Below, piece after piece: positions 38,149 through 39,111 of a stretch of DNA of 43,597 nt; the first letter of the stretch is position 1; each line of letters starts with the position of its first letter. Location of the stretch: IMG/VR virus record IMGVR_UViG_2711768020_000006; one strand, 5' to 3'. Position numbers and translations under genes: made by a program. The notes beneath the pieces are model-generated. The model did not search any database. It worked only from the letters and a program-made list of their open reading frames with translations, and was not told the origin of the DNA. The DNA comes from a virus. Its lineage: Duplodnaviria > Heunggongvirae > Uroviricota > Caudoviricetes.

Positions 38149-38175
38149 TCAAATCGATCGTTTTTGTCGATCGAT
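38149..38175. promoter_or_regulatory. GATC-containing inverted repeat (AATCGATCG-n7-CGATCGATT) upstream of com-mom; candidate methylation-sensitive regulatory site
   Basis: Palindrome and two GATC sites seen directly. Confidence 0.4.
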
Positions 38176-38219
38176 TGAGTGATAAAGATATCAACAACAA
38201 AGCAGGAGGTTATGCGGCC

Positions 38220-38420
38220 ATGTATCGAAACATACGGTGCCGACATTGTAACAAGCTACTGGCACGAGCCAGCTTCAGTTATCTGGAAGTTAAATGTCCG
38301 CGCTGTAAAACCCTCAATCAAATCACATCTCAGAGCGCCACAGAGCACCCCACATACACAAGGAAATCCTGTCGTGGGGAACAGAAAGCAAGTTACATCC
38401 CGTATCATCAGCACGCCTGA
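38220..38420 (+). CDS. com: Com-like zinc-finger translational activator
   Basis: [10 protein letters not shown]...KCPRCK resembles Mu Com; AGGAGG Shine-Dalgarno; lies immediately upstream of and overlapping the mom-like ORF. Confidence 0.7.
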
Positions 38421-39111
38421 ACTTATTCACTATAACGACAATATCGTCGGTTATGGCTCCCGTGAGTTACGGGTTGAGACAATAAGTTGCTGGCTGGCCC
38501 GGCTGGTCGTCGTCAATAAACATTACAGCCATCGTTTCGTAAATAATTCCTACCTTCATCTGGGCATATTTTCAGAACGGGAGCTGGTTGGCGTAATGCA
38601 ATGGGGTTATGCCCTTAATCCAAACAATGGTGCACGCGTCGTAACTGGCACGCAGAACCGCGAATATATGGAGCTTAACCGGTTATGGCTGCATGACTGT
38701 ATGCCGAGAAACTCCGAATCAAGGGCAATCAGTTACGCGCTCAAACTAATCAGACAACTTTATCCGCAGGTGCAGTGGGTTCAGTCGTTTGCAGATGAGC
38801 GTTGTGGCTGTCTTGGTGTCGTGTACCAGGCAAGCAATTTTGATTATGTAGGCAGTCATGAAACAACATTCTATGAACTTGATGGCGAGTGGTATCACGA
38901 GATTTGCAAGAATGCAATCAAACGAGGAGGACAGCGAGGTGAACATCTGCGGGCTAATATCGACAGAGCCAGTGTTCATAAATTCCGTCAGTTTCGTTAC
39001 ATCCGGTTTCTGGACAAGAGAGCCAGAAAACGCCTTAACACAAAGCTATTCAAAGTCCAGCCTTACCCAAAACCACAAACAGTTAAAACTGGTTTGAAAG
39101 AGAGTGAATGA
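38374..39111 (+). CDS. mom: Mom-like DNA modification protein (start uncertain; candidate GTG at 38374)
   Basis: Large ORF overlapping the 3' end of com at the prophage right end, as in Mu; the identification rests on synteny. Confidence 0.55.

Follow-up and report, generated by a model that had tools for sequence, protein, structure and literature searches.

A com-mom operon behind a compact, Mu-like GATC element at the right end of a transposable prophage

The com and mom genes

IMG/VR virus record IMGVR_UViG_2711768020_000006 is a 43,597-nucleotide stretch of DNA (here called the window) that consists almost wholly of one Mu-like transposable prophage. We describe the com and mom genes at the right end of this prophage and the GATC-containing palindrome just upstream of them. 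com (38220 to 38420, plus strand) starts with ATG and encodes a 66-amino-acid zinc-ribbon protein, the translational activator of mom. mom (38374 to 39111, plus strand) starts with GTG and encodes a 245-amino-acid protein with a GNAT fold, the tRNA(Gly)-dependent adenine-N6 DNA modification enzyme. The genes overlap by 47 nucleotides (nt). A Shine-Dalgarno sequence, AGGAGG, precedes com on the same strand at 38204 to 38209, and the palindrome lies at 38152 to 38176. An earlier sequence-only reading had proposed a Com-like zinc-finger gene overlapping an open reading frame of about 245 amino acids at the right end of a prophage, preceded by a switch like that of Mu mom, in which Dam methylation of GATC sites controls OxyR binding.

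We found that both genes belong to the expected families. Com matched Pfam PF10122 (Zn_ribbon_Com) with an E value of 7.5e-13 and 48.2 bits (cutoff, 22.9) and was placed in PHROGs phrog_13819/6417. It is 45% identical to Mu Com and has both CxxC pairs (CRHC...CPRC). Mom matched Pfam PF25680 across profile positions 1 to 202 of 202 (E = 7.8e-78; 261 bits; cutoff, 27.1), PHROGs phrog_1384 (2.8e-83), and the solved structure of Mu Mom, PDB 8bv8 (E = 2.4e-123). Its alignment with Mu Mom is free of gaps, at 78% identity. The overlapping gene pair of the sequence-only reading is thereby borne out, as is its suggestion that the product of 38374 to 39111 would prove similar to Mom.

Mu Mom moves glycine from Gly-tRNA(Gly) to adenine N6 in double-stranded DNA, and an on-base rearrangement then gives 6-NcmdA (Silva et al. 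2026, PMC13219725). Its active-site residues are H58, Y59, R111, S124, D149, R151, and Y159 (PMC13219725). With the gap-free offset of 8, these correspond to H50, Y51, R103, S116, D141, R143, and Y151 in the window, all of which are present. All seven positions are also invariant in a 17-sequence Mom alignment that reaches down to 52% identity. To judge from these matches, the downstream open reading frame is a true Mom, the upstream one is a true Com, and com-mom is a working-type operon of an Sp18/Mu-family transposable prophage. The mom frame is also open for 65 codons upstream of the GTG (38179 to 38373), across com, with an ATG at 38212, 2 nt past AGGAGG. We took this extension to be probably due to chance, because the O157-type copy (locus L010) and Mu have stop codons there.

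For comparison, we assembled 80 mom loci, one genome per species, plus phage and Escherichia coli copies; loci from these sequences are given L numbers below. The RNA target of Com has been defined by systematic evolution of ligands by exponential enrichment (SELEX) as NGAGNNCC(N)2-3GAGNNCCNN, with the core GAGnnCC(n)2-3GAGnnCC (PMC6483171). In the window, the core is matched on the plus strand by GAGCGCCACAGAGCACC (38333 to 38349), 25 nt before the mom GUG, and the full SELEX motif is matched exactly by aGAGcgCCacaGAGcaCCcc at 38332 to 38351. The motif is found in the same place in nine other loci (L007, L009, L010, L019, L021, L029, L036, L043, and L074). Because these bases also code for the Com residues SATEHP, the conservation is partly due to coding and is not independent evidence. 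A translation-inhibition stem is predicted at 38348 to 38379 (plus strand), in which CCCCAC (38348 to 38353) would pair with GUGGGG (38374 to 38379) and hold the mom GUG. In Mu, RNA folding gave the equivalent pairing, CCCAC with GUGGG. The fold energy of the com-mom junction was no better than that of shuffled sequences (z = -1.05), and the stem rests on homology. Taken together, the motif and the predicted stem suggest that translational control by Com is very likely conserved.

The GATC palindrome and its distribution

The palindrome is an inverted repeat, AATCGATCG-N7-CGATCGATT, with perfect 9-bp arms and the spacer TTTTTGT. As each arm is its own reverse complement, the inverted repeat doubles as a 13-bp direct repeat of TCGATCG. 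It was the only match in the window even when 3 mismatches were allowed, and 0 matches were expected from 100 shuffles. The sequence-only reading had the arms, the 7-nt spacer, and the two GATC sites exactly right but began the element at 38149, which is 3 nt too early.

The two Dam targets of the palindrome, at 38156 to 38159 and 38169 to 38172, are equivalent to GATC sites 2 and 3 of Mu mom. They form the sole pair spaced at exactly 13 bp among the 126 GATC sites of the window. The region upstream of Mu mom reads ...cgacGATCgaatcaattaAATCGATCGgtaatacaGATCGATTatgccccaataacc..., where sites 2 and 3 are AATCGATCGgtaatacaGATCGATT at the same 13-bp spacing, and the arms AATCGATC and GATCGATT are identical between Mu and the window. 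The regulatory region of agn43 in E. coli K-12 reads ...acGATCaatatctattttATCGATCGTTTATATCGATCGATaag..., and we found that ATCGATCGTTTTTGTCGATCGAT of the window is identical to the agn43 OxyR/Dam core (ATCGATCGTTTATATCGATCGAT) at 21 of 23 positions. Both of these known elements have three GATC sites, spaced 19/13 bp in agn43 and 18/13 bp in Mu.

We then compared each position of the window with the OxyR consensus, ATAGnTnnnAnCTAT-N7-ATAGnTnnnAnCTAT (maximum score, 20). The predicted OxyR tetramer site at 38135 to 38171 consists of two ATAGnTnnnAnCTAT-like half-sites (38135 to 38149 and 38157 to 38171) separated by 7 bp. It scored 13/20 (6 + 7), which is tied for best among about 43,500 positions in the window and ranks it in the top 3. 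The OxyR-controlled GATC region of Mu scored the same 13/20 (6 + 7) at the homologous place. The half-site ATCGTTTTTGTCGAT, which bears the GATCs at 38156 and 38169, accounts for 7/10, and an alternative half-site register at 38144 to 38158 scored 8/10. The homologous Mu element is known to act via OxyR (PMC3378877, PMC7549136). At gtr of P22, the OxyR dimer half-sites with GATC pairs (-110/-97 and -46/-33, a spacing of 13 bp in each) are each partnered with a GATC-free half-site, and methylation of a single GATC pair abolishes OxyR binding (PMC2909390).

To see how widely the element occurs, we looked for GATC-N9-GATC upstream of com or mom in the comparison set. We found it in Mu, D108, SfMu, Yersinia phage Tongde, the P2-like phage Chuche, the window lineage, and loci L012 to L016, L018, L027, L035, and L059. 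All of the carriers are from Enterobacterales. When 11 separate enterobacterial lineages were aligned on the pair, they shared ATC-GATCg.TaaaatcGATC-aAtT, with differing surroundings. None of the non-enterobacterial mom loci that we fetched had the pair in this upstream position; elsewhere in them, the few 13-bp pairs were scattered as by chance. In this comparison, conservation of the pair is thus restricted to hosts having Dam and OxyR.

Within the window lineage, the palindrome and the 27 bp upstream of it are invariant in copies that are 93 to 97% identical (L008 to L010), and the com Shine-Dalgarno sequence is also kept. The 13 bp after the palindrome (38177 to 38189) differ in every copy. 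About 225 E. coli genomes match 38146 to 38177 with at most 1 mismatch. The whole module is present in 233 E. coli genomes, with homology between lineages starting at 38111. In the O157 copies (L010; about 200 genomes), this short regulatory module is 93 to 96% identical, and the palindrome is identical.

The same element precedes com in P2-like prophages, in which the late activator is of the Ogr/Delta type, unrelated to Mu C, and the com-linked gene encodes a DNA methyltransferase instead of Mom. We located such modules at 1100 to 1180 of L007 (phage Chuche) and at 1460 to 1560 of L094 (E. coli HD12481). In front of the module stand three GATCGAT motifs spaced 18/13 as in Mu, overlapped by a good predicted promoter, TCGATA-16-TGnTATCAT. 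Up to about 170 E. coli genomes match the palindrome probe only partially, and the one that was examined (H100) has a P2-like com-methyltransferase module. This module is probably another anti-restriction module under OxyR/Dam control. We also found the exact string AATCGATCGTTTTTGTCGATC upstream of genes for a helix-turn-helix regulator and an agn43-like autotransporter in E. coli A41 (L095, 1440 to 1525). That region has two GATC pairs, each 13 bp apart, one of which contains AATCGATCGTTTTTGTCGATC, and from its sequence it resembles phase-variation regions of the gtr or agn43 type. Since the element is common to phages with unrelated activators and to chromosomal genes, a host factor, not a phage regulator, is the best explanation for it.

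mom also occurs in a second context, with neither com nor the GATC pair (L006, L022 to L026, and L065, which include Aeromonas phage pAEv1818, a Sphingomonas-labelled contig [L022], and Yersinia and Serratia genomes). In these loci, mom follows a Q-type antiterminator and a terminator hairpin and has a GC-rich leader that is conserved (GGGCGCCCCGGAAAGTTGCCGCTCTCCGGGGC...). There it seems to belong to a lambdoid late operon that is controlled in a different way.

Promoter layout and control of com-mom

We compared the spacing of the element in the window with that in Mu. A 7-bp insertion separates the conserved ATCAATTAAAT from the GATC pair in the window. The distance from the last GATC to the com ATG is 51 bp, versus 78 bp in Mu, which makes it 27 bp shorter. 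The sequence-only reading had expected a site layout different from that of Mu. The two GATC sites themselves turned out to be unchanged; what differs is that site 1 is lost and that com is 27 bp closer. Elsewhere in the comparison set, this distance is 76 to 83 bp in long loci and 54 bp in a short one, Edwardsiella phage L013. In com-less Symbiopectobacterium loci, the pair stands only about 25 bp before the mom ATG. The 27 bp absent from the window correspond to the part that holds the C box TTATgccccaATAA, the -35 element, and the T-run in Mu, and between the GATC pair and com we found neither a T6 run nor a TAAGAT -10 element at a conserved place. From the end of the palindrome to the com Shine-Dalgarno sequence is 27 bp. 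This is too short for a complete promoter, so the OxyR site must coincide in part with the core promoter or be situated downstream of the transcription start. From this spacing, we robustly infer that the operator overlaps or follows the promoter.

Four positions came into question for that promoter, all on the plus strand. Candidate a is TTTAAA-17-TAAATT, with its -10 element at 38098, and is absent from the O157-type copy. Candidate b (38111 to 38139) is ATGACA-17 bp-TATCAA, with the second hexamer at 38134 and a position weight matrix (PWM) score of 4.99. It would start transcription at about 38146 and place the palindrome at +6 to +30. Its hexamers are kept in all copies (ATGACT/TATCAA in L010), and it begins where homology between lineages starts, at 38111. 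Candidate c (38164 to 38194) is TTGTCG-19 bp-TATCAA, with a weak -10 element at 38189 and a predicted start at about 38201. With this promoter, the GATC sites would fall at about -45 and -32, close to the -46 and -33 of GATC3 and GATC4 at gtr of P22. Candidate c also fits the pattern of conservation, in that the palindrome is invariant, 38177 to 38189 varies as a spacer would, and ATCAACAAC...AGGAGG is kept; L009 has a 6-bp insertion downstream of the ATCAACAAC region, and candidate c would explain why this insertion is tolerated. Candidate d, TAAAGAT (38183 to 38189), is the positional homologue of the Mu -10 element TAAGAT by its distance to the ATG. We rejected it as a conserved -10 element because L009 and L010 differ there. 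On this evidence, we slightly prefer candidate c. Under either b or c, OxyR would repress by occlusion.

The phage also encodes a likely source of late activation. The Mor/C-family protein encoded at 10179 to 10601 is 40% identical to Mu C and 28% identical to Mor, and it has the length of C and the position of C, just before lys. As a C orthologue is encoded, a late activator exists. We found no equivalent of Mor among the open reading frames tested between 8000 and 10100, which leaves one Mor/C-family protein, and it is C-like. The middle-to-late cascade may differ from that of Mu.

We think it likely, with some doubt remaining, that com and mom form a pair under a host OxyR/Dam operator, with Mom and Com acting as in Mu, the palindrome serving as an OxyR half-site, and repression controlled by methylation. 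According to this model, Mom would modify adenine N6 from glycyl-tRNA(Gly) and so make phage DNA resistant to many restriction enzymes. Com would be translated from the same mRNA; it would bind GAG..CC...GAG..CC just upstream of the mom GUG and free a start codon otherwise held in the stem. The palindrome would be one dimer half-site for OxyR, and the second, GATC-free half-site would lie 7 bp upstream at 38135 to 38149. When both GATCs are unmethylated, and probably also when they are hemimethylated, OxyR would bind and shut the promoter. Full methylation of the pair by Dam would keep OxyR off and turn transcription on. OxyR would repress by directly occluding the promoter, as at agn43 and at the OxyR(BC) site of gtr. 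The sequences show which genes these are, that the catalytic residues are kept, and that the palindrome is conserved and homologous to the Mu and agn43 sites; from them we infer OxyR binding, its sensitivity to methylation, and the position of the promoter. The C-like activator may or may not be needed. The idea of a Dam/OxyR switch, which the sequence-only reading had put forward by analogy with Mu, is now supported by homology and comparison, namely, by the match to Mu sites 2 and 3, the match to the agn43 core, and a pair confined to Enterobacterales.

Several findings weigh against this model. Mu GATC site 1 is missing, and the nearest other GATC is at 38087, 69 bp upstream. The consensus match of 13/20 is weakly specific, as scores of 12 or more occur at about 23 sites in the window. 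The upstream half-site (38135 to 38149) scores only 6/10, and with the 7-bp insertion relative to Mu, its phasing may differ. We could recognise no C box of the Mu type (TTAT-N6-ATAA and then a C-rich stretch) near com, which leaves the late timing unexplained. A sigma-70 scan found no plus-strand promoter upstream of com, and the PWM yielded four competing weak candidates.

The palindrome could be the site of a phage-encoded regulator, the likeliest being the C-like late activator, with its GATC content incidental. The phage does encode a C orthologue, closer to Mu C (40%) than to Mor (28%). A start near 38196 to 38201 would put the palindrome, itself a dyad, at about -50 to -25, the usual position for C, and Mu C binds a dyad at -28 to -57 of Pmom. 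However, we found no similar dyad elsewhere in the window at up to 3 mismatches, the regions upstream of lys, I, P, and terminase included. The same sequence also stands at agn43, at another autotransporter locus, and in P2-like com modules with an unrelated late activator, and the Mu C box is a different sequence that lies beside the GATC sites, not on them. We consider a phage regulator unlikely on these grounds. Little probability attaches also to a direct effect of Dam methylation on RNA polymerase, or an effect through SeqA, at a promoter with the GATC sites inside it, in the manner of IS10 pIN or other methylation-sensitive promoters, which would tie mom to passage of the replication fork without OxyR. 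The best predicted promoter of the P2-like module (TCGATA-16-TGnTATCAT; score, 9.1) has one GATC in its -35 element and one in its spacer, a GATC abuts the -35 element of candidate c, and SeqA is an ancillary factor at opvAB and agn43 (PMC4856963). A direct effect of methylation would need none of the strict 13-bp spacing, the ATCGAT-type flanks that fit an OxyR half-site, or the near-identity to agn43, and the homologous element in Mu, as noted earlier, works through OxyR. It is also conceivable, though improbable, that com-mom is mainly under a heritable ON/OFF switch like those of agn43 and gtr instead of a late activator, with a minority of lysogens expressing Mom. This is suggested because the element is nearly the agn43 core, sits on the promoter, and lacks a recognisable C box nearby. 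If so, a minority of lysogens, including many O157:H7 strains, would have a 6-NcmdA-modified chromosome and mobilome, as bet-hedging restriction evasion or as epigenetic heterogeneity. For Mu mom, it has been stated that the existence of phase variation is unknown (PMC2909390).

Two further explanations seem to us very improbable. One is that the palindrome acts as a hairpin, either as a stem-loop in the 5' untranslated region or as an intrinsic terminator of transcripts that run leftward, antisense or divergent. As a 29-nt RNA, it has a fold energy of -11.3 kcal/mol (z = -3.7), a terminator scan flagged the palindrome on the minus strand as resembling a terminator with TGATTTATTT as its tail, and candidate promoters a and b would transcribe it. 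Yet other lineages keep GATC-N9-GATC without hairpin potential: the arms are not extended in Mu, and L014, L015, and L035 have GATCAATT with a noncomplementary left side. No leftward gene runs into the palindrome, and the plus strand has no T-run. The other is that the region is a decayed remnant, in which a 27-bp deletion removed the C box and the -35 element and left com-mom silent. The region is indeed 27 bp shorter than that of Mu, no good promoter was predicted, and the 13 bp after the palindrome vary. Against decay, com, mom, the Shine-Dalgarno sequence, the Com target, and all of the catalytic residues are intact. The short layout is found at different insertion sites in about 225 to 233 E. 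coli genomes, so the phage is mobile, and it is found also in the Edwardsiella phage (L013) and the com-less Symbiopectobacterium loci.

Prophage context and comparison with known systems

The rest of the window agrees in its gene content with a Mu-like prophage. A repressor gene lies on the minus strand at 853 to 1398, followed by the genes for transposase A (1817 to 3904) and transposase B (3978 to 4919), GemA (9596 to 10108), the C-like activator described above, and lysozyme (10673 to 11173). Head and contractile-tail genes precede the gene for a Gin-type invertase (34173 to 34745). After gin come about 3.4 kb of cargo and then com and mom. The cargo includes a 684-amino-acid protein with a sialate-O-acetylesterase-like SASA domain and DUF6645 (34831 to 36885, with small open reading frames continuing to 37963), as well as DUF1378 and DUF826. 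A 97-amino-acid minus-strand open reading frame in the cargo (37670 to 37963) had no family match.

The placement of com-mom at the prophage's right end, as the sequence-only reading had it, was confirmed by near-identical copies in 29 complete E. coli genomes, which stop at about 39239. The host genes flanking these copies vary (sgrR, a diguanylate cyclase gene, bcsA, bglJ, and others). Such varied flanks are the signature of random transposition and fix the right end at about 39239, the last phage base. The right-end region (39192 to 39239, plus strand) contains GGTATCAAA repeats at 39192 and 39214. The window contains 5 copies of this repeat (0.29 expected), and at the left end, at 624 and 719, it is inverted; from this distribution the copies are likely transposase-binding end repeats. 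Copies of TTTGATACC at 624 to 632, 719 to 727, and 773 to 781 mark the left end of the phage near 617 to 632.

The prophage lies inside an IS66-family element, flanked on the left by IS66 Orf2/TnpB (296 to 619) and on the right by the C-terminal portion of the IS66 transposase (39330 to 39788). Farther right are a truncated lambdoid tail fiber gene (phage_tail_N) and a DUF4376 tail-fiber-assembly-like open reading frame (39842 to 41444), followed on the minus strand by a gene for an IpaH-type NEL E3 ubiquitin ligase effector (41624 to 43339). These flanking genes suggest a Shigella or enteroinvasive E. coli background. In a near-identical prophage, RefSeq annotates a "tRNA-OTHER" at the equivalent of about 18064 to 18143 (minus strand), between head morphogenesis and virion morphogenesis genes. 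ARAGORN found no tRNA in the window, and Rfam gave only a subthreshold chance match. GATC is rarer in the window than expected (126 observed versus 170 expected; all 100 shuffles had more), and the early region has a 4.5-kb stretch (5079 to 9640) without any GATC.

The com-mom pair and the OxyR/Dam control site of Mu mom and agn43 are already known, and the module in the window is a recognisable variant of them; com-mom with an operator is otherwise expected in a Mu-like prophage. What is new here, as far as the comparison of sequences can tell, is the compact placement of the operator over the promoter, together with the missing site 1 and the missing C box. We found no published description of the mom regulatory region of Sp18-type prophages or of the window, and the methylome literature gave no usable report of unmethylated GATCs at mom of a Mu-like prophage. 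If the model is right, com-mom and com-methyltransferase anti-restriction modules carry the Dam/OxyR operator along as a compact unit, and the core of the operator is the GATC-N9-GATC half-site common to agn43 and gtr. The textbook layout of Mu, with the operator upstream of the activator box, would then be one among several, and the operator would sit on the promoter in a lineage that spans more than 200 E. coli genomes, O157:H7 included. The window would offer a simple system for asking if sequestration by OxyR alone holds off a toxic phage DNA-modification gene.

With Mu, the window shares the gene pair and its overlap, the right-end position after gin, the Com RNA motif, the predicted GUG-sequestering stem, and the C orthologue. 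It also shares the arms and the 13-bp spacing of GATC sites 2 and 3 and the OxyR consensus score. Nothing lies between gin and com in Mu, in contrast to the cargo of about 3.4 kb in the window. Upstream of the activator site, Pmom of Mu has three GATC sites inside about 43 bp (PMC7549136), whereas the element in the window has two. In Mu, a C box also separates the GATC sites from the -35 and -10 elements, which are spaced at 19 bp, and the window lacks a recognisable one. The OxyR site stands upstream of the activator box in Mu and would stand on or after the promoter in the window. The Mu site reportedly lies at about -104 to -59.

At agn43 (flu), the core ATCGATCGTTTnTnTCGATCGAT is the same at 21 of 23 positions, and the last two GATCs are likewise 13 bp apart. 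OxyR is the sole repressor there, and methylation abrogates its binding (PMC2909390). The agn43 site lies near the start point or downstream of it, as it would be in the window with candidate promoter b. agn43 differs in having three GATCs (19/13), in being a chromosomal or cryptic-prophage adhesin gene, and in its heritable ON/OFF phase variation, which has been demonstrated.

Like the window, gtr of P22 and Salmonella has a GATC pair 13 bp apart in one OxyR dimer half-site beside a GATC-free half-site. Its promoter-proximal pair at -46/-33 overlaps the promoter and represses, and candidate c would place the pair of the window at about -45/-32. gtr has three half-sites and two GATC pairs, with alternative activating and repressing occupancy, whereas the window has one pair. 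Another close comparison is with Mu-like prophages of the Sp18 type in E. coli O157:H7. In Sp18, genes for Mom and its regulators have been noted at the equivalent place (PMC3299994). These prophages have the same short regulatory module with an identical palindrome and differ from the window in the upstream neighbor gene and in the 13 bp that follow the palindrome.

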